Shown piece by piece: positions 4,262-45,835 of a stretch of 64,000 bases of DNA (position 1 is the stretch's first letter; every line of letters starts with the position of its first letter). The DNA comes from Chloroflexota bacterium (lineage in GTDB: Bacteria > Chloroflexota > UBA11872): assembly GCA_965247475.1 (NCBI GenBank), contig OZ252016.1, positions 462,143 through 526,142 on the forward strand, read 5' to 3'. Under the pieces are notes generated by a model that worked only from the letters and a program-made list of their open reading frames with translations, ran no database searches and was not told the DNA's origin. A program made the translations under genes and the position numbers.

Positions 4262-4903
4262 GCTGATCGCCGCGGTGCCTATCGTTGCGACTGGGGCTAG
4301 GCTATCCCTCTCGGTCGAAGCTCGGTCGCCTGACGGCCGATCTGAGGCGGGTTGGCGATGCGCACGCGAGTCATACGCCACTTGGTTCCCGGGTTGTTCG
4401 TGGCTGTGGCGCTGCTCGTCGGCGCCTGCGGTGACGAGTCATCTGACGCGGTCGATGATCGGTCCGCCGCGACCGGGCGCGTGCAGCTCGACTATCAGGT
4501 CATCACCGAGGCGGATGCCGGCAGCGTCGTCAAGATCGCGGTCTTCTGCCATGTCATCGACCTCCCCGATAAGAAGGGCACCGAGCTTCATCTGACCGGT
4601 GACGACGCGTCGACGCTGCGCTGGCGATTCGCGCAGAAACCCGACCCGTTCAACCTCGAATGGTTCAAGGTCGACGGGGAGCTCGCGTTCGAAACCGACG
4701 GACTGATTGGCGATCCGACCACCGCGGCCAAGGTCCTTGAGCTCCGGGGCCTGGTCTTCGGCGAAACCGAATTCGTGCTCGAGCTGGTCGAGCGCGACCC
4801 CGCGCAGCGGGGCGGTCCACCGGCCAAGCGCCTGACGTTCCCGATCGAAGTGTTTCTCGATCAGCCCGGCGCCGGTGGCGGCTCGGCGCCCTGCCGCTAG
4901 CGG
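4262..4903. repeat. Segmental duplication copy 1 (~640 bp, ~98% identical to 6313-6951): lipoprotein gene plus leader
   Basis: Near-identity of both the nucleotide and ORF translations, including ~90 bp upstream. Confidence 0.85.
4358..4900 (+). CDS. Secreted lipoprotein, paralogous family copy A (unknown function)
   Basis: Signal peptide with lipobox LLVGAC. Core LTGDDASTLRWRFAQKPDPFNLEWFKVDGELAFETDGLIGDPTTAAKVLE..FVLELVERDPAQR is shared with five other ORFs in the window. The ORF track lists a TTG start at 4352; the ATG at 4358 matches copy B. Confidence 0.75.
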   Translation: MRTRVIRHLVPGLFVAVALLVGACGDESSDAVDDRSAATGRVQLDYQVITEADAGSVVKIAVFCHVIDLPDKKGTELHLTGDDASTLRWRFAQKPDPFNLEWFKVDGELAFETDGLIGDPTTAAKVLELRGLVFGETEFVLELVERDPAQRGGPPAKRLTFPIEVFLDQPGAGGGSAPCR

Positions 4904-5267
4904 CCTTCGACCTCAGCGCGCGCCCTCGCGCCTGATTCGGTACCCGTCCGTCCGCCCGACCGAGCCAAGCCGTTCGCCGCATTCAACGTCTGAATCCGTC
5001 AACGCGGCCGCGAATATCGTGGTCAACCGTCCCGGTCAATGACGCGACACCGATTGGAGCGGGGCGGCACGCGAGCTCCCGAGCGATGCTGCCGATCCAC
5101 CCCGGCCTTCGGTATCGTTCGCGATCAGAGACCTTTGCAAGACGCCCTTGCCCTCTGGGAGAGCGTTGGGGTGAGGGCGTCTTCCAGCTTCGGGGGAAGC
5201 TCTGGATACCGGCTTTCGCCGGTATGACGAAAGTTATGCAAAGGTCTCGATCAGGGGGACAGCACGT

Positions 5268-6107: not shown

Positions 6108-6312
6108 TCGACCGCGTCAAGCGGTTGGGAGTCATTCCGACGCGGACTTCTCCCCCCGTGCACCCTGAGCCAGTCGAAGGGGCACGGGAATGCCAGGTGG
6201 CCCACGTCCCACGGCGGGACCCTAACGGCGCACGCGGGGTTCGGCAACGGCTTACCTTCGAAGGGTGGACAACCTGAAGCCCCCGCCACCCGTTGACAAT
6301 CCATGCGAGGCC

Positions 6313-6951
6313 GATCGCCGCGTTGCCTATCGTTGCGACTGGGGCTAGGCTATCCCTCTCGGTCGAACCTCGGTCGCCTGACGGCCGATCTGAGGCGGGT
6401 CGGCGATGCGCGCGCGAGTCATACGCCACTTGGTCCCCGGGTTGTTCGTGGCTGTGGCGCTGCTCGTCGGCGCCTGCGGCGACGAGCCATCTGACGCGGT
6501 CGATGATCGGTCCGCCGCGACCGGGCGCGTGCAGCTCGACTATCAGGTCATCACCGAGGCGGATGCCGGCAGCGTCGTCAAGATCGCGGTCTTTTGCCAT
6601 GTCATCGACCTCCCCGATAAGAAGGGCACCGAGCTTCATCTGACCGGTGACGACGCGTCGACGCTGCGCTGGCGATTCGCGCAGAAACCCGACCCGTTCA
6701 ACCTCGAATGGTTCAAGGTCGACGGGGAGCTCGCGTTCGAAACCGACGGACTGATTGGCGATCCGACCACCGCGGCCAAGGTCCTTGAGCTCCGGGGCCT
6801 GGTCTTCGGCGAAACCGAATTCGTGCTCGAGCTGGTCGAGCGCGACCCCGCGCAGCGGGGCGGTCCACCGGCCAAGCGCCTGACGTTCCCGATCGAAGTG
6901 TTTCTCGATCAGCCCGGCGCCGGTGGCGGCTCGGCGCCCTGCCGCTAGTGG
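6313..6951. repeat. Segmental duplication copy 2
   Basis: See 4262-4903. Confidence 0.85.
6406..6948 (+). CDS. Secreted lipoprotein, paralogous family copy B (near-identical to copy A)
   Basis: About 98% identical to copy A, including the ~90 bp upstream leader; lipobox LLVGAC. Confidence 0.75.
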   Translation: MRARVIRHLVPGLFVAVALLVGACGDEPSDAVDDRSAATGRVQLDYQVITEADAGSVVKIAVFCHVIDLPDKKGTELHLTGDDASTLRWRFAQKPDPFNLEWFKVDGELAFETDGLIGDPTTAAKVLELRGLVFGETEFVLELVERDPAQRGGPPAKRLTFPIEVFLDQPGAGGGSAPCR

Positions 6952-6983
6952 TCGTTCCCGCCGCCCGCGCCCGTCACCCGGCC

Positions 6984-7386: not shown

Positions 7387-7393
7387 GCTCACC

Positions 7394-8651: not shown

Positions 8652-10640
8652 CTATGACTCCTTCGCGTACAAATCGTGGATGTAGTGGTGGCCCGGCAGC
8701 CCCGTGAAGCTGTTGCCGCCGATCCTGGCGATGTTGAACGCCTTGGTCTGACCCGGAATGACCATCGGCAGGCCGACCACGTACTCCATCAGGATCTCTT
8801 CCGCGCGTCCGAGCATCTCCGCGCGTCTCTGCTGGTTGAACTCGGCACGCTGCGCATCCAGCAGCCGATCGACCTCATCGTTGTAGTAGAACGCGAAGGC
8901 GCGCCCCGGCTTGCCGTAGCGCGACGAGTGGTACTTGGCATACAGCACGTCGGCGTCCGGCCCGCCGCCGCCCGACCACACGGTGTTGAACGAGTCCCCG
9001 CGGGTCAGCCCGTCGAGGAACTGCGCCCATTCCATCGTGGGATTGTCGACGTAGATGCCGAGGTCGCGGTCCATCAGCAGCTTGAACGACTCGGGCATCG
9101 GATCGTCGGGCGTGAGCGGGAACGGGATCTCGAGCCGCTTCCCGTCACGATAGCGCCAGTCGCCCTCGCCGCGGAGCCAGCCGGCCTCGTCGAGGATCTC
9201 GTTGGCCTTGGCCACGGAGAACGGGTACTTGCTGTCCAGCGCCGGGTTGTGCCCGAAGGTGCCAGGCACGATCAGGCTATTGGCCGTTGGCGTGAAGCCG
9301 CCACTGGCTCGGAACGCCTGCTCAGCCTTGTTGAGGCCGTAGATGAGCGCCAGCCGTACGGCGTGCTCGTCCGTCGGCGGCAACTGGGTGTTCAGCTGCA
9401 GCAACCAGGGTATGCCCGGCGATGTCGCGATGTAGACCGCGCGCCGCTCGTCCCCGAAGTGCGGCCTGAGCGCCGTCGCCACCCCGGTCGTCATGCCATC
9501 GATGTCGAACGCATCGAAAGCAGCGATCAGCGTGGGGGCATCGCCCGATTGGATGTAGACGACCTCATCCGGGTACGCCGCGCCGCGGTTGCGGAAGAAC
9601 GACGGTCCCCAGTTGTAGTCCTCAAACCGCTCGGTCGTGAGGGTAACGTTCTCCTTCCAGTCCTTGAACTGCATCGGTCCGGTGCCAACCGGATTGCGGG
9701 CAAGGTCCTCCCCGAGCCGATCGACCGCGGTTGGCGACGTGAAGACCACGTAGCCCGAGCCGATATCGCGCTCGAACAGCACGTTGAGCTGCTTGGTATG
9801 GAGTCGGACCGTGAACTCGTCGACGACTTCCGCGCGCTCCACGTTGCTGATGAACTGGTGGATGAAGCCAGGATCGTTGGCCGGATCCAGCCAGCGGTCG
9901 AAGTTGAACTTCACCGCCTCCGCGTTGAACGGCGTGCCGTCGTGGAACTTCACGTCCTGCCGGAGGTGGAAGGTCCAGCTCATCCAATCGTCAGAAGGTG
10001 ACCAGCTCGACGCCAGCGACCCGTAGACGTTGTAGTCGGGGCCGGTGATGATCAGGCCCTCGTAGAGCACATTGCCGCCGGTCGCGAGGTCGTGCCCGTC
10101 GGTGAACGTGAGCGGATCGAGATTCGTCACCGGGGTGGTCCCGGAGAACGTCAGGCGACCGCCGCGCTGCGGATTCCACTCGGTGAGGCGATCAATGCTC
10201 GCTTTCTTCGTGATGCCGGGAGCACCGCTCCCCGCCGGGGACACGCCCTCGCCAACGATCACCTTCTCGACCTCGACGACCTTCTCGACCTCGACAACCT
10301 TCTCGACCTCGACAACCTTCTCGACCTCGACCGGGACCTCCCTGATGGTCTCGACCTCGACCGGGACCTCCCTCTCAACGATCCGGTCGACCGGAACCAC
10401 CCTGATGGTCTCGACCTCGACCGCGACCTCCCTGATGGTCTCGACCTCGACCGGGACCTCCCTCGCAACGATCCGGTCGACCGGAACTTCCCTGATGGTC
10501 TCGATCTCGACCGGCACTTCCTTCGTCACGACCTGCGTCTCACCGCACGCCGCGAGCGCGGCGGCCCCAACCCCGCCGGCCAGCGCCACCAACCCTAGGC
10601 GCATGACCTCGCGCCTGCTGGGCGGTCTTGTTGCGTTCAT
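8652..10640 (-). CDS. ABC transporter substrate-binding protein, family 5 (peptide/nickel/oligosaccharide), lipoprotein with a repetitive Glu/Val-rich linker
   Basis: Tat-like lipoprotein signal (RREVMRLGLVALAGGVGAAALAACG). A ~90-residue tandem-repeat linker, (VPVEVETIRE)n then (VEVEKV)n, precedes a family-5 SBP body. The start at MNATRPP (10640) is chosen over the upstream TTG/GTG at 10730. Confidence 0.8.
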   Translation of the reverse strand: MNATRPPSRREVMRLGLVALAGGVGAAALAACGETQVVTKEVPVEIETIREVPVDRIVAREVPVEVETIREVAVEVETIRVVPVDRIVEREVPVEVETIREVPVEVEKVVEVEKVVEVEKVVEVEKVIVGEGVSPAGSGAPGITKKASIDRLTEWNPQRGGRLTFSGTTPVTNLDPLTFTDGHDLATGGNVLYEGLIITGPDYNVYGSLASSWSPSDDWMSWTFHLRQDVKFHDGTPFNAEAVKFNFDRWLDPANDPGFIHQFISNVERAEVVDEFTVRLHTKQLNVLFERDIGSGYVVFTSPTAVDRLGEDLARNPVGTGPMQFKDWKENVTLTTERFEDYNWGPSFFRNRGAAYPDEVVYIQSGDAPTLIAAFDAFDIDGMTTGVATALRPHFGDERRAVYIATSPGIPWLLQLNTQLPPTDEHAVRLALIYGLNKAEQAFRASGGFTPTANSLIVPGTFGHNPALDSKYPFSVAKANEILDEAGWLRGEGDWRYRDGKRLEIPFPLTPDDPMPESFKLLMDRDLGIYVDNPTMEWAQFLDGLTRGDSFNTVWSGGGGPDADVLYAKYHSSRYGKPGRAFAFYYNDEVDRLLDAQRAEFNQQRRAEMLGRAEEILMEYVVGLPMVIPGQTKAFNIARIGGNSFTGLPGHHYIHDLYAKES
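10259..10520. repeat. In-frame coding tandem repeats (18-bp and 30-bp units) encoding the (VEVEKV)n/(VPVEVETIRE)n linker of the SBP at 8652-10640
   Basis: Visible direct repeats ccttctcgacctcgacaa x4 and cgggacctccctgatggtctcgacctcgac x~5, interleaved with a variant unit. Confidence 0.85.
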
Positions 10641-10737
10641 CGATACCCTCCCGTGGCTATTCGGAACGGCACGCGCCGCCCCATTCACCAAGCAAACCTT
10701 CGAGATCAACCGATTCGAGCGATAGGGCACCCCTTCC

Positions 10738-29673: not shown

Positions 29674-30588
29674 TCAGGCTTTGATGCCGGTCAGCGCGAT
29701 GCCTCGCACGAAGTGCTTCTGCGCGAAGAAGAACACAATGACGATCGGCACCACCGACACCATCGAGGCCGCCATCAACATCTGGAACAACGTGCCGTAC
29801 TGCGAGCGGAACCAGCGCAGCCCGACCGCCAGCGGCAGGCGGTCGGGGGTGGAGATGAACACGAACGGCTCGAAGAAGTCATTCCAGATGTTGATGAAGT
29901 TGAACACGACCACCGTCGCGATTGCCGGCTTGGACAGCGGCACGATCACGCGGAACAGCACTTGCAGTCGATTGGCCCCGTCTACCCTGGCCGACTCGTC
30001 CAGCTCCACCGGCAGCGTGAGGAAGAACTGCCGCAGGATGAAGATGAAGAACGGCGAGCCGAACATGTTCGGGATGGCAACCGGCCAGATCGTATCCAGC
30101 AGATTGATCTCCTTGAACATCACGAACTTGGGAATGATCGTCACATGCCCCGGCAGCATCATCGTCACCAGCACCAGGATGAACAGCTGGTCGCGGCCCG
30201 GGAAGTGGAGGCGTGAGAAGCCGAACGCCACGACGATGCTCACCAGCGTTAGGCCGACCATGCCCAACATGACCAGATAGAAGGAGTTCAGGAGCCAGTT
30301 GCCGAACGGCCCCGTCTCCCACATATCGACGTAGTTCTCCCAGAAAATGGGATCGGGCCACCATTGCGGCGGACTGATGAACAGCTTGTCGGTCCGCATG
30401 AACGATGTCCGCAGCATCCACAGAAACGGGACGATGTACGCGAAGCTCCCGGCCACGAGCGTTGCGTAGATCAACACGCGAACGCCAACCCGACCGGCGC
30501 GAACGCGCAGCGAGCTGCGGCGCCGAACCGGACCCGTGGTCGCGTCCAGCGGGTTCGATGGCGCTGCGGTGACGGTCGGCTCACGCAT
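29674..30588 (-). CDS. Carbohydrate ABC transporter permease (MalG-like)
   Basis: EAA loop ESARVDGANRLQVLFRVIVPLSKPA; six transmembrane segments. Confidence 0.85.
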   Translation of the reverse strand: MREPTVTAAPSNPLDATTGPVRRRSSLRVRAGRVGVRVLIYATLVAGSFAYIVPFLWMLRTSFMRTDKLFISPPQWWPDPIFWENYVDMWETGPFGNWLLNSFYLVMLGMVGLTLVSIVVAFGFSRLHFPGRDQLFILVLVTMMLPGHVTIIPKFVMFKEINLLDTIWPVAIPNMFGSPFFIFILRQFFLTLPVELDESARVDGANRLQVLFRVIVPLSKPAIATVVVFNFINIWNDFFEPFVFISTPDRLPLAVGLRWFRSQYGTLFQMLMAASMVSVVPIVIVFFFAQKHFVRGIALTGIKA

Positions 30589-30600
30589 GTTGTCTCGCGG

Positions 30601-31560
30601 TCAGCGGCCGACCGCTTGCTCTCCTTCGTAGTAGACCCAGCGGCGGGCGAGACCGAACTGCACGATCGTGAAGAACAGGATGGTCAGCATCAGGACCCAG
30701 GCGATTGCCGACGCATACCCCATCTTGAAGAACTGGAACGCGGTCCAGTAGAGATACAGCAGCGTGAACAGCGTGGTGTCCGCCGGTCCCCCCTGGGTGA
30801 CCACCAACGCCGCGGTGAACACCTGGAACGACCCGATGACCGCCAGCACCAGGGTCAGGAAGATGTACGGGGACATCATCGGGACCGTCACGTGCCGGAC
30901 CTTGCCCCGCCAGCCGGCGCCGTCGATCTCGGCCGCCTCGTACAGGTGCTGCGGGATGCCCTGGAATCCCGCCAGGTAGATGATCATGGAGGCCCCGACG
31001 GTCCAATAGCTCATGAGGATCAGGCCGGGCAGGGCCCATGTGGTGCTCGCCAGCCATTTCGGCGCCTCGATGTCAAATGGCGTCAGGAAGACCTCGAGAA
31101 ACCCGTTGAGCAACCCCTCTTCCTGAAGGATCCAGTACCACAGCACCGCCGTCGCCACCCCGGCCGTAACCGACGGCAGGTAGAAGGCCGTCCGAAAGGC
31201 CGCCATTCCCTTCACCTTGCGATTCAGCAGGCCGGCGATGGAAAAGGCCAGCAGCAGCACGCCCGGCACGTGAAAGAACACATAGAACGCGGTGTTGTAG
31301 ATGCTGTGCACGAATCGACCGTCGGCCCCGGAGATCAGATCGACATAGTTGGAGGCGCCGACCCACTTGATGTCGCCGATCAGCCGCCATTCGGTGAAGC
31401 TCAGGTACAGCGAGAAGAAGAACGGACCGGCGAGAAACACCACAAACCCGATCAGCCAGGGACAGATGAACAGAAAGTTCAGGAACTCTTCCCAGGTCCA
31501 CCCGAGAGCCGTGCGGCTCTCGCCCCTCGACCTGGTGCGCCTGGCGTCAGTAACGGCCAT
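30601..31560 (-). CDS. Carbohydrate ABC transporter permease (MalF-like)
   Basis: EAA loop EAAEIDGAGWRGKVRHVTVPMMSP. Start at MAVTDARRT (31560). Confidence 0.8.
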   Translation of the reverse strand: MAVTDARRTRSRGESRTALGWTWEEFLNFLFICPWLIGFVVFLAGPFFFSLYLSFTEWRLIGDIKWVGASNYVDLISGADGRFVHSIYNTAFYVFFHVPGVLLLAFSIAGLLNRKVKGMAAFRTAFYLPSVTAGVATAVLWYWILQEEGLLNGFLEVFLTPFDIEAPKWLASTTWALPGLILMSYWTVGASMIIYLAGFQGIPQHLYEAAEIDGAGWRGKVRHVTVPMMSPYIFLTLVLAVIGSFQVFTAALVVTQGGPADTTLFTLLYLYWTAFQFFKMGYASAIAWVLMLTILFFTIVQFGLARRWVYYEGEQAVGR

Positions 31561-31706
31561 CAATAGCTGCCTGTGCGGGCTGGCTCGGATCGTGGACTCG
31601 CTGCGATAGGCGGCGATTGTAGGGACTTGCATCCAGTCCCGCACCAGCGACTGCACGTTGGCCCAACGGACCGCCCGCTGGGCTCGGCCCGGTCTGGCGC
31701 GTACGG

Positions 31707-33323
31707 CTAGTCAAGCACCTCAAACCCGAAGATCGTCGCCTTGCGCATTCGGAACTGCAGGACCACCGGCCCGAAGTTGGGGCCGTCGAGCGCGTTACCG
31801 CCGGCCCAGCGGACCGGCGCGTCCAGATGGTCGCCCGAGATAGGCCTCGCATCGTCGATCCCGCGACCGTCCTGCGCCTGCCCGCCCACCAGGTGACGCC
31901 CGGGATTCTGCTCCGCGTGCAACGCTGCCACCCGAACCTCGCCGTCGCTGGCGGTCTTGACGTTCACCTGCAGGCGGCGGCCATGCAGCCGCAGCACCGG
32001 CGTATGAAACTCGCCGTCCCCGGCGGCTTCGAGCCCCGCGATTCGACCCCGCGGCCACATCGCCCAGGCCGTCCCCGTCTTGGCGTTCGGCCCTGGGTGC
32101 TTGTGCGGTTTCGACGAGCCGCCGAACGGGATGCCGATCTTGTCGCCTGGCAGCTCCACCAGCCCCTTTGATGAGAACAGCGACGCGGAATCGAAGCTGC
32201 CCTCCGGTCCCGGCTCGACCACCGGATTGCCGGGAACCCAGTTCCAGGCCATGTCGTCCGGGCTCGCGGCCACGCCGATGGTGGTCAAGTCGGTCGCGCG
32301 GTCGTACAGCGTTGGGAACATGAGATGGGTGCTCGGGTCCCCCGGATAGGTCGCCTTGCCGCTCGTGTATAGATCGGTGGTCGCCGCGCCCGCCGGGGGC
32401 GCGGTGACCACCGGCGACGGCAGCGGCCAATCGAAGAAGTCGGGTGACTGCGCCCGCGCGATCGTGCGCCGGTCGAAGCTCCAGCCGCGCGTGTACCACA
32501 CGTACGCCTCTAGGTCCGGATTCCAGTCGACCGAGTTCTTCGTGTCGCTGAACGTGATCACAACCGGGTCAGGATGCGGCACCCACTCGATGCCGTCGTA
32601 TGAGGTCGCCACGAATATCGCGGCCGGGTCGCTCGGGTTGCTGCGATAGGCGGTCCACGGGTCCACCTGGTCGGGCCGCGCGCGCGACCATTCGCGCACG
32701 ACCTCAGGTGTCGTCGCACCCATATACAGCGACTTGTAGCGCTGGTGCGCGGGCGCGCGAGGATCGACGAACATCACCTCCCCGTGGATGCCGGGCGGCC
32801 CGGTGAGCTCGCGGCCAAACACGATGTTGGTGTCGGCGTCCTGCCAGCGGTAGAGCCCGAAGGTCGGCTTGCGCCACTCGAATCCGTCGTCCGACTCCGC
32901 GTACCCGACCAGCGCGCGGTAATCGGGCGGCCATGGCAGCGCCGCGGCCGCCGCCGGATCTCGCGCGTCCGGCAGATTCACGTGGTACCACATCCGGTAG
33001 AGCCCGCCGTCGCGGACCACGGCGCCGCCGCCGCAGGATTGCTCCCACGGCGCCGACGGCGTCAGGATCGGCTCGCTCCGTTCGGCCGGCTGGGCGCGCA
33101 GTTCGATTCCGTGCGGGACGGCCCAGTGACCCGGGCGGATCGCATCCGGATCGTCCACGCCCTCTTCCAGGCGGCCGCCGCCGTGCGGGTTGGTCGAGAG
33201 CGACCGGCCGCCCGCGCCCAGCCAGCGCACCCGGCCCGCGTAGACGTAGCGATAGTCCACGAACGGGTGATACCCCGCGGCGACATCGAACGGCGGCGCG
33301 CGGCCGAGCAGTGGGTCAGGCAC
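31707..33323 (-). CDS. Glycoside-hydrolase-like beta-propeller protein (paralogue of 12080-13564) with C-terminal beta-sandwich
   Basis: EPILTPSAPWEQSCGGGAVVRDGGLYRMWYH first-blade motif and GYAESDDGFEWRKP. Its C-terminal domain resembles that of the 12080-13564 protein. Confidence 0.5.
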   Translation of the reverse strand: MPDPLLGRAPPFDVAAGYHPFVDYRYVYAGRVRWLGAGGRSLSTNPHGGGRLEEGVDDPDAIRPGHWAVPHGIELRAQPAERSEPILTPSAPWEQSCGGGAVVRDGGLYRMWYHVNLPDARDPAAAAALPWPPDYRALVGYAESDDGFEWRKPTFGLYRWQDADTNIVFGRELTGPPGIHGEVMFVDPRAPAHQRYKSLYMGATTPEVVREWSRARPDQVDPWTAYRSNPSDPAAIFVATSYDGIEWVPHPDPVVITFSDTKNSVDWNPDLEAYVWYTRGWSFDRRTIARAQSPDFFDWPLPSPVVTAPPAGAATTDLYTSGKATYPGDPSTHLMFPTLYDRATDLTTIGVAASPDDMAWNWVPGNPVVEPGPEGSFDSASLFSSKGLVELPGDKIGIPFGGSSKPHKHPGPNAKTGTAWAMWPRGRIAGLEAAGDGEFHTPVLRLHGRRLQVNVKTASDGEVRVAALHAEQNPGRHLVGGQAQDGRGIDDARPISGDHLDAPVRWAGGNALDGPNFGPVVLQFRMRKATIFGFEVLD

Positions 33324-33382: not shown

Positions 33383-33943
33383 TCAGCAATTGCCTTGGAA
33401 GCACGTAACCTCCCGGATGATCTGGAACGTGTATTCGAGGCGTTTCGCGGGCTCTCCCGTTCGCCGGGCGGGGTCGCGCTCCACCAGCTCCAGCACCACT
33501 TTGGTGGTGCCGCCTTCCGCCTGTCCGTGAAACTCCAGCACCTTCGCCGCTGTTGTCGGATCACCCAGCAGCCCGTCGGTCTCGAATGCCGGTTCGCCGT
33601 CCACCTTGATCCATTCGAGGTGGAAGGGGTCAGGCTTCTCCGCGAACCGCCAGCGCAGCGAGGAGGCGTCGTCGCCCTCCAGGATGATCTCCGTCCCCTT
33701 CTTCTCGAATAACCCGATGTCCCAAATGAATCGCTCGGTCACGATGACCTTGCCCGCATCCGCCTCGGTCAAGACCTGATTCGCCTCCAGCGGAAGGAAG
33801 GTTGCGGCCGAGCGCCGGGTGAGGTCGGTCTCGCTGGTGACGCTCTGGTCCGATCCGCCCTCGCCACAGGCCGCCAGCAGCGTAAGCGCGACGACCGCGA
33901 GCAAAGCGATCGGCGCCCATCCGCGAGAGGTACGACCAGGCAC
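33383..33943 (-). CDS. Secreted lipoprotein, paralogous family copy C
   Basis: Lipobox LLAACG. Core LEGDDASSLRWRFAEKPDPFHLEWIKVDGEPAFETDGLLGDPTTAAKVLEF..VVLELVERDPARR. Confidence 0.75.
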   Translation of the reverse strand: MPGRTSRGWAPIALLAVVALTLLAACGEGGSDQSVTSETDLTRRSAATFLPLEANQVLTEADAGKVIVTERFIWDIGLFEKKGTEIILEGDDASSLRWRFAEKPDPFHLEWIKVDGEPAFETDGLLGDPTTAAKVLEFHGQAEGGTTKVVLELVERDPARRTGEPAKRLEYTFQIIREVTCFQGNC

Positions 33944-34152: not shown

Positions 34153-36120
34153 TCACCACGCGATCTGTTCGTTCGAAACGAAGCGCGTGAGCTTTCGCCA
34201 GCGGGTTTGCCCGCTGCGATAGTGCTCGCGCCGGTAGAAGGGGTAGTACCGGCCCCGCGGGAAGATGTCGACCACGTCGTTCCCGCGGCGCACCAGCGTG
34301 TACGTGCGCTTCTGGATGCCGATCAGGTCGGTCCGCTCCGGCAGCGGAAAGGTGATCGTGGCCGTCTCGCCCGGCCGAACCGCGCCGAGCCGCGCGTAGC
34401 GGCCGTCCCACGACACGGCGCGAGCCTCGCCGTTCACCTCCGCGCGCGCCTCGGCCGGCCGCACCCATTCCGCGATCCGCACCGCGAGCTCCACCGGCTG
34501 CTTGACCTTGATGTCCACCCGTCCCTCATACGGGATGTAGCTGTCCACGTCGGCCCACCGCGACGCGCGGTTGAGCAGCAGATTGACCCGCAGCGCGCCG
34601 TCGGAGTGCGTGACGATCCGGTCCCAGATCCAGTAGATGGCACGCGCCGCGTTGGCCGTGTCGCCGTGGACGAACCCCCGGATGCCGGTCGGATCGTCAT
34701 ACCAGTCGTTCGGAGCGGCCTCGGTTGGCCAGGACCCGAGGTTGCGTTCCAGAACTCGGTCGGTGGTCTGTCCCGGGCCCACCTGGACTGTCGGAAACGC
34801 CCTCCGCCTGATCGCGGCGACGCTCTCACCGGCCAGTGTGGAGCCCGGAAGGTGGCGAGCCCAATCCACGCTGAGCAGCTGCGACTCGGCAAGCATGTTG
34901 CGGGTCCACCGATCGATGTCATCCCAGCAATCCGCGATCCCCGCTTCGCTCAGGCGCACCGCCGTCGCCAGCATGGTGGCCAGACCGGCCACCTCGCACG
35001 GGTTGAACTGCTCCGCGTCGTACTCGCGCGACTCGCCCTCGTCCAGCTCGCCGCTGATGGTCCGCTCACGCCACTCCGGCCCGGGGACGTGGTTTGGAGC
35101 GAAGCCGATAAGCGTATTCAACCGTGCCCGGGCCCACGTGTAGCTCTTCACCACGAACTCCAGCAGCTCGTCGTCGTTCGCCTGCAGCGCGTAGTCGGCC
35201 ATGGCCCGCAGACCGCGGGCGTGCGCGTGGACGTGCCCTTTCACCGCGCCGCGCTGGGCCGTCACGAACGCTCCGTCCTCGGCAAAGAACGTGTCTCGAT
35301 GAAACACGATCAGCTTGCCAGCCAGTGTCAGCGCGGGCTCATAGCCGATCTGCTCGTACGCCCGTACCAGCCCCCAGTACACCAGGCTGAGCTCGGCCAT
35401 GTGGTAGTGGAAGCGCGGGGTCGCGTCGGTCGGTGGTTGCTCGGTCACCCATAGGGGGCCGGGCCAGAAGAAGGCGTAGTCGCCGCGGTCGACCGCGATC
35501 TCGATCAGCCCATCCACCGCTCGACGGATCGACTCCTCCCATACGGGCCCGCCGTCGCGCGCCGCGTACAGCGAGACGGTGCGCAGCAGTTGCCCGATGA
35601 CGAACGGCGACAACACTTGCTCGCTGTCCGGATCGAACTCGCCGCCCAGAACCCCTGCCACGAAGCTGGGATCCTCGTTCAGCAGATCCATCGCCCAGGG
35701 ACGGCCTCGAATCGGGATAACGAACAGTCCGTTGTCGCCCTGTTCCAGCAGCGTGACTTCCATCCAGCGGCGATCCACGTGCAGGTTCTGATCGCTGCCC
35801 GACATCAGCCGGTTCAGGACCACGGCCTCCTGGAACTTGGGTGTCAGCGTGGGGCTGGAGAAATCCGCCAGCATCGTCGGCACCGGGGTGAACTTGACGC
35901 GCCAGTACACCTCGTAGTCTGCCTCCGGGTTCGGGTTCTCCGTCATCGCGTGAATCGCCAGCCGTGCCCGCTCGGCCAGATCGAGCGTGTCGGGCACCAG
36001 CGCCTCGTAGCGCTCGCCGTCGTACGACGGCATCTGGAAATCCGGGAAGGTCGAGCGGACGTACCCGATCGGATCGCCGGGCTTCCAGTTCGGCTCTAGT
36101 TCACTCGCGTCCGGCAGCAT
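34153..36120 (-). CDS. Hypothetical protein, putative (alpha/alpha)6-barrel glycoside-hydrolase-like protein (GH127/GH88-like; assignment tentative)
   Basis: 655 aa and cytoplasmic, with helix-rich composition and periodic aromatic/acidic residues. The start lies 10 bp downstream of lipoprotein D's stop on the same strand. Confidence 0.35.
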   Translation of the reverse strand: MLPDASELEPNWKPGDPIGYVRSTFPDFQMPSYDGERYEALVPDTLDLAERARLAIHAMTENPNPEADYEVYWRVKFTPVPTMLADFSSPTLTPKFQEAVVLNRLMSGSDQNLHVDRRWMEVTLLEQGDNGLFVIPIRGRPWAMDLLNEDPSFVAGVLGGEFDPDSEQVLSPFVIGQLLRTVSLYAARDGGPVWEESIRRAVDGLIEIAVDRGDYAFFWPGPLWVTEQPPTDATPRFHYHMAELSLVYWGLVRAYEQIGYEPALTLAGKLIVFHRDTFFAEDGAFVTAQRGAVKGHVHAHARGLRAMADYALQANDDELLEFVVKSYTWARARLNTLIGFAPNHVPGPEWRERTISGELDEGESREYDAEQFNPCEVAGLATMLATAVRLSEAGIADCWDDIDRWTRNMLAESQLLSVDWARHLPGSTLAGESVAAIRRRAFPTVQVGPGQTTDRVLERNLGSWPTEAAPNDWYDDPTGIRGFVHGDTANAARAIYWIWDRIVTHSDGALRVNLLLNRASRWADVDSYIPYEGRVDIKVKQPVELAVRIAEWVRPAEARAEVNGEARAVSWDGRYARLGAVRPGETATITFPLPERTDLIGIQKRTYTLVRRGNDVVDIFPRGRYYPFYRREHYRSGQTRWRKLTRFVSNEQIAW

Positions 36121-36129
36121 TGCCCGGTC

Positions 36130-36741
36130 CTACCCACACGTGGCGCTGCCGAAGCCGATGTTGGGGCACGGCGTCTGTCCCTGGCAGCCCGCCCCAGTTC
36201 CTCCGGTCCCCGGCTCGAAGCACACCGAGAACGTGTACTCCAGACGCTTGACCGGCGCGTCGCCGCGGTTCGCCGGGTCCCGCTCGACGAGTTCGAGCAC
36301 GAAAACCGCTTCACCGACCGCGCTCGGCCGGAATTCCAGCACCCTCTTCGCCGTGGTGGGATCCCCGATCAGGTCGCCGGTCTCGAAGGCCAACCGGTCA
36401 TCGACCCCATACCACTCGACCACGAACGGATCGGGCTTCTCCGCGAAGCGCCAGCGCAGGCTGGACGCATCGTCACCCTCGAGGGTCAAAACCACGCCCT
36501 TCTTGTCCGGCAGGCCGATGTCGGCCGAGAACGTGGGCGCCTCGATGACCCGGCCAGCGTCGGCCTCGGTGAGCACGAGATCGGCCTCGGTCATCACCAC
36601 ACCCGTCGCGACCGAGATTTGCCCCACGTCCTCGCCGACCACGCTTTCGCCGCACGCGCCCAGCGCGGTCAGCGCGACCAGTGCCGCCAGCCCGAGAAAC
36701 CGTCGACGGCCGGTGGTCCTCATGATCGCGTTCTGCTTCAT
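36130..36741 (-). CDS. Secreted lipoprotein, paralogous family copy D (Tat signal plus lipobox)
   Basis: MKQNAIMRTTGRRRFLGLAALVALTALGACG, the family core motif, and a C-terminal Cys-rich tail GCQGQTPCPNIGFGSATCG. Confidence 0.75.
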   Translation of the reverse strand: MKQNAIMRTTGRRRFLGLAALVALTALGACGESVVGEDVGQISVATGVVMTEADLVLTEADAGRVIEAPTFSADIGLPDKKGVVLTLEGDDASSLRWRFAEKPDPFVVEWYGVDDRLAFETGDLIGDPTTAKRVLEFRPSAVGEAVFVLELVERDPANRGDAPVKRLEYTFSVCFEPGTGGTGAGCQGQTPCPNIGFGSATCG

Positions 36742-36830
36742 GGCCGGAGCCGGTGAACAGCGAAGGTCTTGAATCGAATGGAGGATACGCCGCCGCACCG
36801 GCGCCTGCCACGGGCCTACCCGCGCCGGTC

Positions 36831-37450
36831 CTACCCGCACGTCGCGCCGCCGAACCCGATGCTGGGGCACGGCGTCTGTCCCTGGCAGCCGGCTTGGGTT
36901 CCTCCGCCCGCCGACTCCATGCAGGTCGAGAACGCGTACTCCAGACGCTTGACCGGCGCGCCCACGCGGTCCGCGGGATCGTGCTCGACGAGCTCGACTA
37001 CGAACGTACGAACGCCGTCTCGCCGATTGTGGCGGGTCGGAATTCCAGCACCTTCTTCGCTGTGGCGGGATCGCCGATCAGGTCGCCGGTCTCGAAGGCC
37101 AACCGGCCATCGACCGCATACCACTCGACCACGAACGGATCGGGCTTCTCCGCGAAGCGCCAGCGCAGGCTGGACGCATCGTCGCCTTCGAGGGTCAGCA
37201 GCACGCCCTTCTTGTCCGGCAGGCCGATGTCATGCAAGAACGTGGGCGCCTCGATGACCCGGCCCGCATCGGCCTCGGTGAGCACGACATCGGCCTCGGT
37301 CATCACCTTGCCCGTCGCGACCGAGATCTGACCCACCCCCTGGCCGACCACGCTCTCGCCGCACGCGCCCAGCGCAGCCAGCGCGAAGACTCCCGCCAGC
37401 CCGAGGACTCGTCGACGGCCAATCGCCCTCATGAACGCGGTCTGCTTCAT
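36831..37450 (-). pseudogene. Lipoprotein family copy E, disrupted by a frameshift (ORFs 36998-37450 and 36831-37124)
   Basis: The N-terminal 150 aa (MKQTAFMRAIGRRRVLG...ETAFVRS*) and the C-terminal part (...ELVEHDPADRVGAPVKRLEYAFS...CQGQTPCPSIGFGGATCG) lie in different frames with a 1-nt indel near 37000-37030. This may be a pseudogene or a sequencing error. Confidence 0.6.
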
Positions 37451-37539
37451 GGGCGGAGCCGGTGAACAGCGAAGGTCCCGAATCAGATGGAGGATACGCC
37501 GCCGAACCGGTGCTTGCTAGGCGCTCGCTCGAACCAGTC

Positions 37540-38154
37540 CTACCCGCAGGTAGCGCTGCCGAACCCGATGCTGGGGCATGGCGTCTGTCCCGCGCAACCC
37601 CCCCCGGCAAATGCCGGATCCCCCGGCTCGTAGCAGACCGAGAACATGTACTCCAGACGTTTGACCGGCTCGCCGGACCGCATGGCCGGGTCCCGTTCGA
37701 CCAGTTCCAGCACGAAGCTGGTCTCCCCGATCGTGCCGGGGCGGAATTCCAGGACCTTCTTCGCCGTGGCGGGATCGCCGATCAGGTCGCCGGTCTCGAA
37801 GGCAAGCCGGTCGTCCACCCCGTACCACTCCACGAAGAACGGATCGGGCTTCGCCGCGAAGCGCCAGCGCAGGCTGGATGCATCGTCACCTTCAAGGGTC
37901 AACAGTATGCCCTTCTTGTCCGGCAGGCCGATGTCGACCGAGAACGAGGGCGCCTCGATCACCCGACCAGCGTCGGCCTCGGTCAGCAGGAGATCGGCCT
38001 CGGTCATCACGTGACCCGTTGCGACCGAGATATCCCCGACCTCCTCGCCGACCACGCTTTCGCCGCACGCGCCCAGCGTGGCCAGCGCGGAGACCGCCGC
38101 CAGCCCGAGGAATCGTCGCCGCCCGATTGCCTTCATGACTGTGTCCTGCTGCAT
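37540..38154 (-). CDS. Secreted lipoprotein, paralogous family copy F (Tat signal plus lipobox)
   Basis: MQQDTVMKAIGRRRFLGLAAVSALATLGACG, the family core motif, and a Cys-rich C-terminal tail. Confidence 0.75.
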   Translation of the reverse strand: MQQDTVMKAIGRRRFLGLAAVSALATLGACGESVVGEEVGDISVATGHVMTEADLLLTEADAGRVIEAPSFSVDIGLPDKKGILLTLEGDDASSLRWRFAAKPDPFFVEWYGVDDRLAFETGDLIGDPATAKKVLEFRPGTIGETSFVLELVERDPAMRSGEPVKRLEYMFSVCYEPGDPAFAGGGCAGQTPCPSIGFGSATCG

Positions 38155-38386
38155 GGCCGGTACCGGTGAACCGCGAAGGTCGTGTAGGGGATGGAGGATA
38201 CGTCGCCGAACGAGTGGTTGCTAGGCGCCCACTCGACCGGCGATGCGCGACGCCCCTCCAACGTGGCTTCGCGGCCATCCCTGCACATGCGTTACCGCAT
38301 ACGCGATCGATCGCAACGATTCCCGCGCACGACACGCCCCTGCCCTGCGCACTACTCTCCGCACGTCGTGGCCCAGGGGAATACGC

Positions 38387-42761: not shown

Positions 42762-44010
42762 TTGCTGCTAGCGGTACACGGTTTCCTTGGCGCCGCGCTG
42801 GATATCGAAGATCGACCCCGCGCCAGGCCCCTGCGGCGCGTTGACCCGAACGGTTTGATCGATGCAGCGATACGCTGGCGTGTTCTCGCCGCGCATCAGG
42901 TACTCGTGGAACGTATCCAGGTCCCGTACGCCCTGGAGCGGCCATGCGTCGGCCGCCGCGTACCCGACCAGCCATAGCCGCCGCGACTGCGACGATAGAT
43001 TGGGCGCGGACCCGTGCATCGTGCGCGCGTGATGCACCGACACGCCGCCGGCGGGCACAGTCACGGGAATCGCGGCATCGAGATCGACGCCGGCTTCGCT
43101 CGGGGCGATGGCGCCCGCGAAGACGCCGTCGCTGTGGTGGTCCAGAATCTCCCAGCGGTGCGACCCGGGAATCACCATCAGGCAGCCGTTATCGATGGTG
43201 CAGGGATCCAGCGCAATCCCGATTGCCAGCACGTCGTCGTTAGTGTGCGGATAGAACGCGAAGTCCTGGTGCCACTCGACCGGGCTCCCGACGTCGGAGG
43301 TCTTCATGTTCAGCTTGTCGCTGTGGTACCGGACGCCGTGGTTGCCCATCAAGGGCTCCACCAGGTCGGCGAACAGGTCGGATCGCGCGTACTGCTTGAA
43401 CAGCGGATAGTTGGAGGCTGGCGTCCTGAGCCGTCGAAGCGCCGGAGCGTCGGCCGAATGCGTGGATTCTAGTTCGAAGCGGTCGTCGTTCTCAGTCAGG
43501 CTTCGCGATTCCTCGACGAGCTCGTCGACGACGCCGAGAATCTCATCCACCTCGCTCGGCGTCAGGAATTCCTCGACGACCAGATACCCGTTCTCTTGAT
43601 AGAACTCGACCTGCTCCGGTGACACCATAAGCCGCTGCTCCACTTCCGATGCCCGGTGCCGATTCTATGACGATTCTCGCTGCGGCGCCTGTCGGCGATC
43701 AGCCTCACAAAGACTGTTACCGAGTGAGAGTGGTGCCTCACGAGGCCGGTTGCCAAGACCTGATGGAAGGGGCGTGTCGACGGTGGCGGTGGGGACTCCC
43801 TGGCGCCCTCGAGCCATCGAGCGCGTCGGCCATCCGGATCCGCGATCCCCGCCGTGGCGAGGCTGCTCGATCCGATGGTGGGTCCCGACGATGTCGAGGC
43901 CGGCGGCGCGAGGGCGGATAGGGTGACTCCGCCGCCCGATCCTGCTCTTTGATGGCGCCTGCGGGTTCTGCCGCGCCTGTGTGCGAGTGTTCGGCTTGCT
44001 CGACCGCCGG
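42762..44010. repeat. Tandem duplication copy 1 (~1.25 kb; PhyH gene plus 5-prime part of DCC gene); copy 2 at 44280-45528
   Basis: Paired ORFs 42768-43643/44286-45161, and 42944-43243/44462-44917, with a constant 1518-bp offset. Confidence 0.8.
42768..43643 (-). CDS. Phytanoyl-CoA dioxygenase (PhyH) family protein, tandem copy 1
   Basis: PhyH motifs (FYQENGYLVV, WHQDFAFYPH, HHARTMHGSAPN). Confidence 0.8.
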   Translation of the reverse strand: MEQRLMVSPEQVEFYQENGYLVVEEFLTPSEVDEILGVVDELVEESRSLTENDDRFELESTHSADAPALRRLRTPASNYPLFKQYARSDLFADLVEPLMGNHGVRYHSDKLNMKTSDVGSPVEWHQDFAFYPHTNDDVLAIGIALDPCTIDNGCLMVIPGSHRWEILDHHSDGVFAGAIAPSEAGVDLDAAIPVTVPAGGVSVHHARTMHGSAPNLSSQSRRLWLVGYAAADAWPLQGVRDLDTFHEYLMRGENTPAYRCIDQTVRVNAPQGPGAGSIFDIQRGAKETVYR

Positions 44011-44049
44011 AGCCGTCGTGGCTCGTCAGCGCGACCAGTGCCCTTTTGA
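43854..44049 (+). pseudogene. Truncated/frameshifted fragment of the DCC-family thiol-disulfide oxidoreductase gene (duplicate of the 5-prime end of 45374-45835)
   Basis: The nucleotide sequence is a copy of 45374-45560 with a 1-nt indel. It retains LLFDGACGFCRACVRVFGLLDRR, then runs out of frame to a stop. Confidence 0.6.
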
Positions 44050-44285
44050 TTTCTCACTGGAACGCCACGAAGCTCATATCGCGACGGCGCGCGAGCCGTC
44101 AAACCCTGCCTCCCGGCTGCCGGCCTAGCAGCGCATGTAGGAACCCAGGCGGCGTGTAGCGGCACCGCGCACCGGAGTCCTGACCGGTCCCTCGGCACTA
44201 CGGGCGGTGCGGCCGCCACCCCAACACGTCCCGGTGCCGTCGTGCCACGGCCGCGCGACGCCCGCCGGTTCCGACGCTTGGCGCG

Positions 44286-45161
44286 CTAGCGGTAGACGAT
44301 TTCCTTGGCGGCGCGCTGGATCTCGAAAATCGACCCCGCACCGGGCCCCTGCGGCGCGTTGACCCGGAAGATTTGATCGGTGCAGCGATACGCCGGCGTG
44401 TTTTCGCCGCGGATCAGATAGTCGTGAAACGTATTCAGGTCCGCCACGCCCTCGATCGGCCATGCGTCGGCCGCCGCGTACCCGACCAGCCATAGCCGCC
44501 GCGACTGCGACGAGCGGTTGGGCGCGGACCCGTGCAGCGTGCGCACGTGATGCACCGACACGCCGCCGGCCGGCACGATCACGGGAACCGCGGCATCGAG
44601 GTCGACGCCGGCTTCGGTCGGGGCGATGGCGCCCGCGAAGACACCGTCGTTGTGGTGGTCCAGAATCTCCCAGCGGTGCGACCCGGGAATCACCATCAGG
44701 CAGCCGTTATCGACGGTGCAGGCATCCAGCGCGACCCCGATTGCCAGCAAGTCGTCGTTGGTGTGCGGATGGAACGCGAAGTCCTGGTGCCACTCAACCG
44801 GACTCCCGATGTCAGAGGTCTTCATGTTCAGCTTGTCGTGCTGGTAGCGGACGCCGTGATTGCCCATCAGCGGTTCCACCAGGTCGGCGAACGAATCGGA
44901 GCGCGCGTACTGTTTGAACAGCGGATAGTTGCGGGCCGGCCCCTTGAGCCGTCGAAGCGCCGGAGCGTCGGCCGAATGCGTGGATTCTAGTTCGAAGCGG
45001 TCGTCATGCTCGCTCACGCCTCGCGATTCCTCGACGAGCTCGTCGACGACGCCGAGGATTTCATCCAGCTCGCTCGGCGTCAGGAATTTCTCGACGACCA
45101 GATACCCGTTGTCCTGATAGAACTTGACCTGCCCCGGTGACACCATAAGCCGCTGCTCCAC
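44286..45161 (-). CDS. Phytanoyl-CoA dioxygenase (PhyH) family protein, tandem copy 2 (~88% aa identity to copy 1)
   Basis: Same motifs as 42768-43643. Part of the ~1.25 kb duplicated unit offset by 1518 bp. Confidence 0.8.
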   Translation of the reverse strand: MEQRLMVSPGQVKFYQDNGYLVVEKFLTPSELDEILGVVDELVEESRGVSEHDDRFELESTHSADAPALRRLKGPARNYPLFKQYARSDSFADLVEPLMGNHGVRYQHDKLNMKTSDIGSPVEWHQDFAFHPHTNDDLLAIGVALDACTVDNGCLMVIPGSHRWEILDHHNDGVFAGAIAPTEAGVDLDAAVPVIVPAGGVSVHHVRTLHGSAPNRSSQSRRLWLVGYAAADAWPIEGVADLNTFHDYLIRGENTPAYRCTDQIFRVNAPQGPGAGSIFEIQRAAKEIVYR

Positions 45162-45373
45162 TTCCGATGCCCGGCGCCGATTCTATGCCGATTCTCGCTG
45201 CGGCGCCTGTCGGCGATCAGCCTCACGAAGGCTGTTACCGAGTGAGACGGTGGTGCCACACAAGGCCGGTTGCCAAGACCTGATGGAAGGGGCGTGTCGA
45301 CAGCGGTGGTGGGGACTCCCTGGCGCCCTCGAGCCATCGAGCGCGTCGGCCATCCGGGTTCGCGATCCCGGCC

Positions 45374-45835
45374 GTGGCCAGGCTGCTCGATCCCATGATG
45401 GGTCCCGACGATGTCGAGGCCGGCGGCGCGAGGGCGGATAGCGTGGCTCCGCGCCCGATCCTGCTCTTTGACGGCGCCTGCGGGTTCTGCCGTGCCTGTG
45501 TGCGAGTGTTCGGCTTGCTCGACCGTCGGCGCCGTGTGGCGCGCCTCGACTTCAACCGGCCGGAGGCCGACGAGTTGCTCGCGGCGGTGCCGCCCCCTGC
45601 CCGCCGCCGCGCCGTCCTACTGGCCGTGCCGGGCGGGTCCATGCGGTCAGGCGGCCCGGCCGTCCGCGCGGCGCTCGAATTCGCGCTGGGTCGACGGGCG
45701 TTGGCGTCGATGCTTCAGGCGCGGCCCGTCGCGGCGCTGATCGACGCCGGCTACGCGCTCATCGCCGACCGCCGTGGGTGGTTCGCCTGGCTCGGTCGGT
45801 TCGGGCGCCGCTGCGACCTCAACGACTACCCGTAG
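45374..45835 (+). CDS. Thiol-disulfide oxidoreductase DCC family protein (DUF393)
   Basis: LLFDGACGFCRACV Cys-x-x-Cys motif near the N-terminus; about 150 aa. Confidence 0.7.
   Translation: MARLLDPMMGPDDVEAGGARADSVAPRPILLFDGACGFCRACVRVFGLLDRRRRVARLDFNRPEADELLAAVPPPARRRAVLLAVPGGSMRSGGPAVRAALEFALGRRALASMLQARPVAALIDAGYALIADRRGWFAWLGRFGRRCDLNDYP

Follow-up and report, generated by a model that had tools for sequence, protein, structure and literature searches.

Chagasin-like inhibitors and the locus under study

To our knowledge, every I42 protein characterised so far is an inhibitor of family C1 cysteine peptidases and works through a wedge made of the NPTTG, GXGG and RPW motifs. What defines the chagasin family is a set of three exposed loops, all at the same end of an immunoglobulin-like (Ig-like) fold, with NPTTG in L2 and RPW or RPF in L6, and the peptidase-binding wedge of chagasin is formed by L2, L4 and L6 (PMC2607524). 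Here we compare with these inhibitors a family of small lipoproteins from a Chloroflexota genome, represented by three head-to-tail paralogous genes that were located by open reading frame (ORF) listing and tblastn at 36130-38154, on the minus strand of a 64-kb stretch of DNA (contig OZ252016.1, positions 462,143 to 526,142; the whole stretch is called the window, and positions are counted from its first letter). By the strict I42 criteria, the Pfam gathering score and the three motifs, the family falls outside I42, while by fold and remote homology it falls inside, and it is best filed as a divergent new I42 subfamily, not as a canonical inhibitor.

Compared with the chagasin/ICP proteins (chagasin of T. 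cruzi, EhICP2, amoebiasin-1 and the ICP of P. aeruginosa), the family is predicted to have the same eight-strand Ig-like sandwich, its profile alignment is co-linear with theirs, and its conserved residues are likewise concentrated at the L2, L4 and L6 positions. Shared elements are the Trp two residues after L2, the hydrophobic pair and Gly of L4, and the Arg that starts L6. In contrast, GDDAS, G[DN]P-x-T and RDPA stand in place of NPTTG, GXGG and RPW, an insertion of ~13 residues between strands 2 and 3 and a conserved TEADAG loop are added, and the scores stay below the Pfam gathering threshold.

Among bacterial proteins, the Pseudomonas Cpi1 protein (formerly Cip1) is a membrane-anchored chagasin-like inhibitor and a surface lipoprotein (bioRxiv 10.64898/2026.06.02.729523; PMC5014320). 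Like the present family, Cpi1 is a bacterial I42-fold lipoprotein; it is surface-displayed and needs no endogenous C1 peptidase partner. Nevertheless, it keeps the canonical NPTTG, which is required for its function, and it is single-copy, belongs to a diderm host and carries a Sec signal, whereas the family is multi-copy in a Chloroflexota genome, has some twin-arginine-like signals and has its motifs replaced. Other relatives with the I42 fold, the Plasmodium ICPs (falstatin and PbICP-C) and the Toxoplasma toxostatins, resemble the family in having no NPTTG in L2 and in carrying domain insertions (PMC2845656). These proteins differ in being eukaryotic, in their long N-terminal extensions and in being experimentally proven C1 inhibitors, and their loop sequences are unrelated to the DDAS/GDP/RDP set of the family. 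The MliC/PliC lipoprotein inhibitors of lysozyme are small beta-rich proteins that shield the envelope, pushing conserved loops into the catalytic site of a hydrolase from outside; the analogy is functional only, their fold being different and no sequence or structural match to them having been found here. In the searchable literature, no I42-fold protein with the loop set of this family is described.

Homology to I42 by sequence and predicted structure

An earlier note on this DNA, made from the letters alone, had proposed that the lipoproteins are a divergent chagasin-like (I42) Ig-fold, and this is borne out by Pfam, by a hidden Markov model (HMM) of the family, by hhalign and by AlphaFold with Foldseek. 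The family alignment holds 57 members, and all motif counts given out of 57 refer to it. The window proteins by themselves match nothing in Pfam, NCBIfam or the PDB sequences, and a profile search of the PDB sequences matched a signal peptide only. In Pfam, PF09394 (Inhibitor_I42) is the only recurrent match and is found for 19 of the 57 members, always below threshold (best E 0.0037); they span positions 8-87 of the 91 in the profile and reach 12-17 bits against a gathering score of 27.2, with 17.1 bits as the best score among the ten members scanned in detail. When the family HMM is run against 1.84 billion proteins, the sole credible match outside the family (E 3.3e-4) is P0084, a 135-residue lipoprotein and bona fide I42 protein (PF09394 E 6.4e-23) that carries NPTTGYEW and GAGG, and whose NPTTGYEWRLAEEPD lines up with GDDASSLRWRFAEKPD of the family. 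A borderline match to the same HMM, P0083, was discarded as a low-complexity coiled-coil protein. P0084 belongs to a group of canonical metagenomic I42 lipoproteins that are similar in size to the family members and share with them a signal peptide and an AGCG lipobox; after L2, their W-R-L-A-E-E-P-D closely resembles W-R-F-A-E-K-P-D of the family. In contrast to the family, P0084 keeps NPTTGYEW and GAGG, passes Pfam and has no strand 2-3 insertion. The P0084 group is the sequence bridge from I42 to the family.

Profile-profile comparison supports I42 as well. The control alignment consisted of 18 I42 sequences, namely the homologues of P0084, all annotated PF09394, and chagasin, for which the sequence used is identical to PDB 2NNR chain A. 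With the full alignments, hhalign gives a probability of 97.7% (E 1.4e-12, 130 columns), which becomes 95.8% (E 7e-9, 86 columns) after removal of the signal peptides from both sides and 93.8% (E 1.7e-7, 101 columns) against the six most divergent I42 sequences, chagasin included. The reversed control gives 19.9% (E 1.1e-3, 29 columns), and 21 column-shuffled controls give at most 1.9% (E 0.025 or worse, 5-50 columns). The resemblance to chagasin exceeds chance, since the hhalign score is 54.9 and the one reversed and 21 column-shuffled controls score at most 26.

The fold was predicted with AlphaFold2 for the first of the tandem copies (copy 1) from the 57-sequence alignment, and the model was compared with 350,542 PDB chains by Foldseek. 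The model is confident, with a predicted local distance difference test score (pLDDT) above 95 for residues 80-170 and of at least 83 from residue 50, and it contains eight strands. Its nine best matches are all I42 proteins, EhICP2 (3m88/3m86, E 6.5e-7 to 3.5e-6), amoebiasin-1 (6cjz) and chagasin (2nqd, 2nnr and 2h7w), with E values of 6.5e-7 to 9.4e-4 and template modelling (TM) scores by target length of 0.57-0.72. The ICP of P. aeruginosa and PbICP-C (3pnr) stand lower in the list, and the next tier consists of generic Ig-like domains, such as PAD N-terminal domains, SbsB and MSP. As a calibration, a model of P0084 was found to match the same PDB entries best (E 1.9e-8 to 8e-4, TM 0.53-0.76), and by the Foldseek measure the modelled family domain appears nearly as chagasin-like as a real I42 protein; its root-mean-square deviation to the I42 structures is larger than that of P0084, which fits an insertion. 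According to the model, the domain is the eight-strand Ig-like sandwich of chagasin.

Sequence identity to I42 is just ~12-22%, the Pfam matches are all below threshold and many Ig-like domains occur lower in the Foldseek list, so that the similarity could be thought convergent, or a generic likeness of Ig folds without homology. Such an origin is very improbable, given that the four independent methods agree on the I42 family and on no other, that the alignment, co-linear along some 90-130 columns, preserves the hydrophobic pair and Gly of L4 and the Arg of L6 as well as the invariant Trp after L2, and that the reversed and shuffled controls fail. Because all four methods point to I42, and to I42 alone, the family is almost certainly homologous to I42, at a remote distance.

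Loops at the positions of the chagasin wedge

The motifs DDASS-L-R-W, GDPTT and RDPAxRG, which the note had placed at chagasin-like spacing, are present and conserved across the 57 members. In copy 1, D90 and G126 are 36 residues apart and G126 and R154 are 28 apart, compared with 37 residues between N29 and G66 and 25 between G66 and R91 in chagasin. In the hhalign alignment, the L2 equivalent (37864-37893, minus strand, as for all the segments given here) pairs EGDDASS-LRW with SNPTTG-FAW of chagasin, with G89-D-D-A-S-S94 and L-R-W97 of the family facing S28-N-P-T-T-G33 and F-A-W36. At the L4 equivalent (37759-37803), AFETGDLIGDPATAK is aligned to ..KLLGAGGTE of chagasin and L124-I-G126-D-P faces L64-L-G66-A-G-G, while at strand 7 and the L6 equivalent (37663-37707; ELVERDPAMRSGEPV) R154 is aligned to R91 of the chagasin RPW and V152-E-R154-D-P faces Y89-M-R91-P-W. 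The insertion between strands 2 and 3 (37909-37947), of ~13 residues, reads SFSVDIGLPDKKG; it is family-specific, absent from canonical I42 proteins, and appears in hhalign as the pattern xFxxDIGLPDKKG relative to I42. The TEADAG loop, between strands 1 and 2 (37966-37983), is the most conserved segment of the domain.

The pattern NP[ST][ST]G-aromatic-x-W occurs in none of the 57 family members and in all 18 I42 controls. At this position 50 of the 57 have G[DN]D[AGTV][SW]..[RF]W, with R96 and W97 invariant. Likewise, [LIVMF]2-GXGG is found in no family member (0/57), and all 57 have [LIVM][LIVM]G[DN][PT] instead; at the L6 position, E[RQM][DGV]P is present in 53 of the 57 and the Trp or Phe of RP[WF] is absent. 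Some of the bona fide I42 controls are also without RPW, and one is without GXGG. The Trp two residues after L2, which the note had singled out as a check, is W97 and is invariant in 57 of 57; it aligns with the conserved Trp of I42, which we take to be a core-packing residue. A tendamistat-like W-R-Y reading of L-R-W-R-F was dropped, as this Trp aligns with the conserved I42 Trp and lies in a strand. The alignment in the note is essentially right, but its wording that all three loops are rewired goes a little too far: the replacement is complete in L2 only, while in L4 the hydrophobic pair and the first Gly survive, and in L6 the Arg does.

That NPTTG, GXGG and RPW have been lost together speaks for a changed specificity, and therefore the target is probably different from that of the canonical inhibitors. 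On the other hand, the fold and the loop positions match those of chagasin, and the lipoproteins could have kept the canonical target and act as surface shields against foreign proteases in the manner of Pseudomonas Cpi1, their loop sequences being an alternative way to build the same wedge. Plasmodium ICPs and Toxoplasma toxostatins are still potent C1 inhibitors with no NPTTG in L2 (PMC2845656), bona fide I42 controls already do without RPW and in one case without GXGG, and a lipoprotein I42 inhibitor without an endogenous C1 target is known (bioRxiv 10.64898/2026.06.02.729523). Retention of the canonical target is nevertheless unlikely: all three motifs are missing together, NPTTG-[FY]-x-W separates the 18 of 18 controls from the 0 of 57 family members, and L2 has two adjacent Asp in place of Pro-Thr, while the Ki of chagasin shifts 10-100-fold with substitutions of T31 and T32, and W93A is 100-fold worse against cathepsin L (PMC2607524).

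Conservation and selection

The four most conserved segments of the family are TEADAG, GDDAS-LRW (L2), FETxxLIGDP (L4) and ERDPAxR (L6), and they are found at the chagasin binding-loop positions. The mean top-residue frequency, weighted and taken per segment, is 0.95 for TEADAG, 0.81 for L4, 0.79 for L2 and 0.75 for L6, compared with 0.53-0.65 for strands 2, 3, 5 and 8, 0.30 for the turn 140-142 at the other end, 0.42 for the linker and 0.18 for the C-terminal tail. The ratio of nonsynonymous to synonymous substitution rates (dN/dS, by the Nei-Gojobori method) is 0.21-0.28 over the whole domain between the window paralogues; in five distant paralogue pairs it is 0.08-0.17 in the four loop segments and 0.23-0.40 in the rest of the domain, all of these values being rough, with dS near saturation. 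From these ratios it follows that the genes are real and under purifying selection and that the loops are their most constrained part. Diversifying selection on the loops, of the kind expected in an arms race, was considered and rejected, as both the conservation and the dN/dS values make the loops the most constrained segments. The conserved acidic residues of the loops are E59, D61, D90, D91, E120, D123, D127, E153 and D155. Strand parity would place TEADAG, L2, L4 and L6 together at one end of the sandwich, with both the N-terminal linker and the C-terminal tail at the opposite one, an arrangement that matches the exposed loops described for chagasin (PMC2607524).

Proposed role of the family

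The reading that we favour, with fair confidence, is that of a surface-tethered binding or inhibitor module on the chagasin scaffold, with altered specificity. After export and lipidation, the linker would carry the domain, and the cluster of conserved, strongly acidic loops would point away from the membrane, as the chagasin wedge would, and bind one extracytoplasmic partner common to all paralogues. Most likely, this cluster would block the active site of a hydrolase, secreted or foreign, as chagasin, ICP and Cpi1 do with papain-like proteases, with a specificity unlike that for papain-type targets. The many copies in each genome may then serve dosage or differential regulation, and not different specificities, because purifying selection is strongest on the loops, in contrast to the variable linker and tail. 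Taken separately, it is reasonably likely that the loop cluster is the functional binding face, and the proposal that the family acts as an enzyme inhibitor is possible though somewhat doubtful. A more specific and tentative proposal, which we regard as being on the unlikely side, is a new class of I42-fold inhibitors in which a re-targeted chagasin scaffold would block a non-C1 enzyme with an acidic four-loop wedge and would have reached 10 or more copies, all surface-anchored, in a genome of 3 Mb; candidates for such an enzyme include peptidoglycan hydrolases, secreted metallopeptidases and other extracellular hydrolases that a monoderm soil bacterium would encounter.

Several observations count against a re-specified chagasin module. 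The window proteins alone give no Pfam match at all, and no member reaches the Pfam gathering score of 27.2 bits. The loops are near-invariant across 10 or more paralogues per genome, unlike the outcome of an inhibitor arms race. The single membrane-distal loop surface is inferred from strand parity and the chagasin topology, not from measured distances. In nine distinct neighbourhoods, no family copy has a peptidase or other obvious extracytoplasmic partner beside it, and a cysteine peptidase occurs in none of them. Finally, the acidic loop cluster, rich in Asp and Glu, could equally be a structural Ca2+ site.

This last point leads to a different kind of function, that of a non-inhibitory surface module for Ca2+ or glycan binding, or for scaffolding, that would aid nutrient capture for the ABC importers and the islands of carbohydrate and organic-acid catabolism in which many copies lie. 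Asp, Glu, Thr and Gly abound in the conserved loops, as in Ca2+ sites; Ca2+-binding PAD Ig domains and S-layer or adhesin domains make up the second tier of structural matches; loop invariance across paralogues fits one common small ligand; and four of the six first neighbourhoods contain an ABC importer, a lipoprotein solute-binding protein or glycoside hydrolase (GH)-like genes (GHL10, GHL6, GH172 and a weak GH127). In contrast, aromatic residues are absent from the conserved loops, no carbohydrate-binding module or lectin appears in the top 50 structural matches, and other copies lie beside glnA/holB/PSP1, an MFS and a Mg-chelatase-like gene, alcohol dehydrogenases or transposases, so that the carbohydrate context may only reflect a genome full of such islands. 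On balance, such a module is distinctly unlikely.

For the favoured reading of a binding module with altered specificity, the family is a natural and strongly conserved subfamily in which scaffold and loop positions are retained and every motif is replaced, and it would reveal how much re-specification a compact inhibitor fold tolerates and might lead to a new class of targets. Moreover, an otherwise "hypothetical" family gains an annotation, and with it an unusual share of the small lipoproteins in a poorly known soil lineage of Chloroflexota. The practical value is modest until the target is found, and the interest would be much higher if a non-C1 target were demonstrated.

Family architecture, export and distribution

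The family domain, of ~120 residues, follows a variable linker of 20-25 residues and is followed by a hypervariable C-terminal tail. Its consensus reads LTEADAG-vIE...DIGLPDKKG..I.L.GDDAS.LRWRFAEKPDPF..EW..VDG.LAFETDGLIGDP.TAAKVLEFR....GET..VLELVERDPA.R.G.PAKRLEYTF.V. and the same layout is seen in copy 1, with a signal peptide, a short linker, the ~120-residue chagasin-fold domain and a Cys-rich C-terminal tail. The signal peptide of copy 1 (38065-38154, minus strand) has a twin-arginine-like GRRRFLGL and a lipobox L-G-A-C ending at Cys30. Across the family, the signal sequence ends in L-x-[AG]-C-G, and the Cys-Gly pair after the hydrophobic segment (C30-G31) is invariant in 57 of 57. The strict lipobox pattern [LVI][ASTVI][GAS]C is found in 32 of the 57 and the remainder have L-x-A-C with G or N at position -2, while an RR-x-hydrophobic motif precedes the lipobox in 22 of the 57, for example the GRRRFLGL of the three tandem copies. 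On these sequence features, the family members are very probably exported lipoproteins.

The tails of the tandem copies carry the Cys-rich pattern C-x12-C-x-GQTPCPS-x-GFGSATCG, found at 37540-37629 in copy 1 and with equivalents in copies 2 and 3 and in their closest homologues. The pattern suggests two disulfides. The tails of other paralogues are unrelated to it.

The family is very narrow; neither Pfam nor NCBIfam has a model for it, and no source names it. In 5.8 billion proteins clustered at 90% identity, 66 clusters belong to it, every one with E < 1e-31 and without a Pfam domain; the family HMM finds 22 convincing representatives among 1.84 billion clusters at 50% identity, and 13 loci occur in 241 million metagenome records, on contigs that, at 5 kb or less, are too short to show gene context. 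A scan of the GTDB species-representative genomes with the family patterns gave no confirmed relative. Several distinct clusters can fall on one megabase contig, as in the case of a 1.72-Mb contig with nine, which indicates ~10 or more family copies in a genome of ~3 Mb. A glutamine synthetase encoded beside one family member is 76-79% identical to proteins of uncultured Chloroflexota metagenome-assembled genomes, and the host is therefore an uncultured member of the Chloroflexota. Its genome has a G+C content of 68% and a size of ~3.0-3.3 Mb, and appears circular, judging by the contig labels.

Gene copies in the window

Across the whole 64-kb window, the copies were mapped with the ORF listing, tblastn and the family HMM. 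Copy 1 (37540-38154, minus strand) encodes 204 residues from its first ATG; the probable start is 38136, which gives 198 residues and is the start called in related genomes. Copy 2 (36831-37450, minus strand), in the middle of the array, is disrupted in the window by an 8-bp direct duplication, GTTCGTAC|GTTCGTAG, at 36998-37013, which causes a frameshift and an in-frame premature TAG. As its counterpart is intact (203 residues) in four closely related assemblies, the break is either a strain-specific pseudogene or an assembly error. Copy 3 (36130-36741, minus strand) encodes 203 residues, the 246-residue ORF that reaches 36870 being an over-extension. The tandem copies have a mean column identity of 88% at the DNA level, with ~90 nucleotides upstream of each start included, and pairwise protein identities to copy 1 of ~79-83% by tblastn.

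Three further copies were found outside 36130-38154 by tblastn and the family HMM. Copy 4 (33383-33943, minus strand; 186 residues) is ~53% identical to copy 1 and lies between the genes for a 655-residue and a 538-residue protein. Copy 5 (4352-4900, plus strand) and copy 6 (6406-6948, plus strand) encode 182 and 180 residues, respectively, and copy 6 is contained in a 665-bp segment at 6310-6972. This segment, with its family gene, is duplicated at 4262-4925 and 6310-6972, with 97.4% identity and an SDR gene between the two. The duplication is recent, because the related loci L005 and L006 carry the upstream copy only.

A conserved stretch of ~90 nucleotides (GGCGGCGTATCCTCCATC...GACCTTCGCTGTTCACCGGCTCCGGCCATG) precedes each tandem copy on the minus strand, at about 36742-36836, 37451-37539 and 38155-38250. 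No Shine-Dalgarno sequence is recognisable in these leaders, and scans for sigma-70-type promoters and terminators around the array gave chance level only. Since the promoter scan is empty, each tandem copy may have its own non-canonical promoter or leader.

Gene neighbourhoods and the neighbouring glycoside-hydrolase-like proteins

On the minus strand of the window, the three tandem copies are followed by the gene for the 655-residue protein (34153-36120), copy 4, the gene for the 538-residue protein (31707-33323), two ABC permeases, GHL10 and hydantoinase B, and a gene of the enolase superfamily lies divergently upstream of the array. The 655-residue protein has a weak match to the GH127 middle domain (E 0.0016), beyond which neither it nor the 538-residue protein matches anything in Pfam, NCBIfam or the PDB sequences; the latter is distantly related (22% identity) to a 494-residue protein of the related locus L005. 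The two proteins, so far unclassified, possibly represent new GH-like families.

This context led the earlier note to suggest that the co-operonic glycoside hydrolases are the targets of the lipoproteins. Indeed, the stop codon of copy 3 is 9 bp ahead of the start of the 655-residue gene with its weak GH127 middle-domain match, copy 4 ends 59 bp ahead of the 538-residue gene, and GHL10 lies downstream. Nevertheless, inhibition of enzymes of the same operon is extremely improbable, and the suggestion finds no support in the proteins themselves or in their relatives. The maximum Kyte-Doolittle mean over 15 residues is 0.34-0.39 for the 655-residue, 538-residue and GHL10 proteins and 1.9-2.9 for the lipoproteins, and an upstream extension of the 655-residue ORF is impossible. 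With no hydrophobic N-terminal segment, and hence no signal peptide, the GH-like neighbours would be cytoplasmic while the lipoproteins are predicted to be exported, which makes their inhibition implausible. Moreover, homologues with 86% and 69% identity in a related genome have no GH neighbours.

The gene neighbourhood of the family is not conserved. Elsewhere, members lie beside an enolase-superfamily gene and GH172, beside a sugar-isomerase-like gene and an SDR, next to a lipoprotein solute-binding protein and GHL6, beside an MFS transporter and a Mg-chelatase-like gene, or beside holB, PSP1 and glnA. In a related species, they are found beside acetyltransferase, alcohol-dehydrogenase and transposase genes, with no GH nearby.

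The ABC permease pair of the window (29674-31656, minus strand) has no adjoining gene for a solute-binding protein, and copy 4 and the 538-residue gene occupy the upstream position. A large lipoprotein solute-binding protein is encoded at 8652-10730 (minus strand), with 30-nucleotide tandem repeats at 10289-10558 that encode (E)VPVEVETIRE linker units just after the lipobox. The same style of linker is seen in solute-binding proteins encoded beside family members in two other loci (L007, 9509-11089; L005, 12203-14221).

Other repeats are present in the window. A repeat unit of ~1.25 kb occurs at 42767-44016 and 44285-45535, with ~1.52 kb from start to start and 90-95% identity, and appears to cover a pair of 291-residue ORFs (42768-43643 and 44286-45161) together with the sequence just downstream of each. 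In this neighbourhood, syntenic relatives have two adjacent PhyH genes beside a DCC1-like gene. Additionally, two dispersed families of intergenic repeats look like repetitive extragenic palindromes or miniature inverted-repeat transposable elements (REP/MITE-like): one of ~58 nucleotides, TGTCATTCCGAGGCGAAGCCGAGGAATCTCATGG..., with seven copies, at 7389, 21724, 25924, 27720, 41442, 53248 and 56632, and another, CCCCGTGCACCCTGAGCCAGTCGAAGGGGCACGGGAAT, with four copies, at 6141, 13699, 21951 and 42614.

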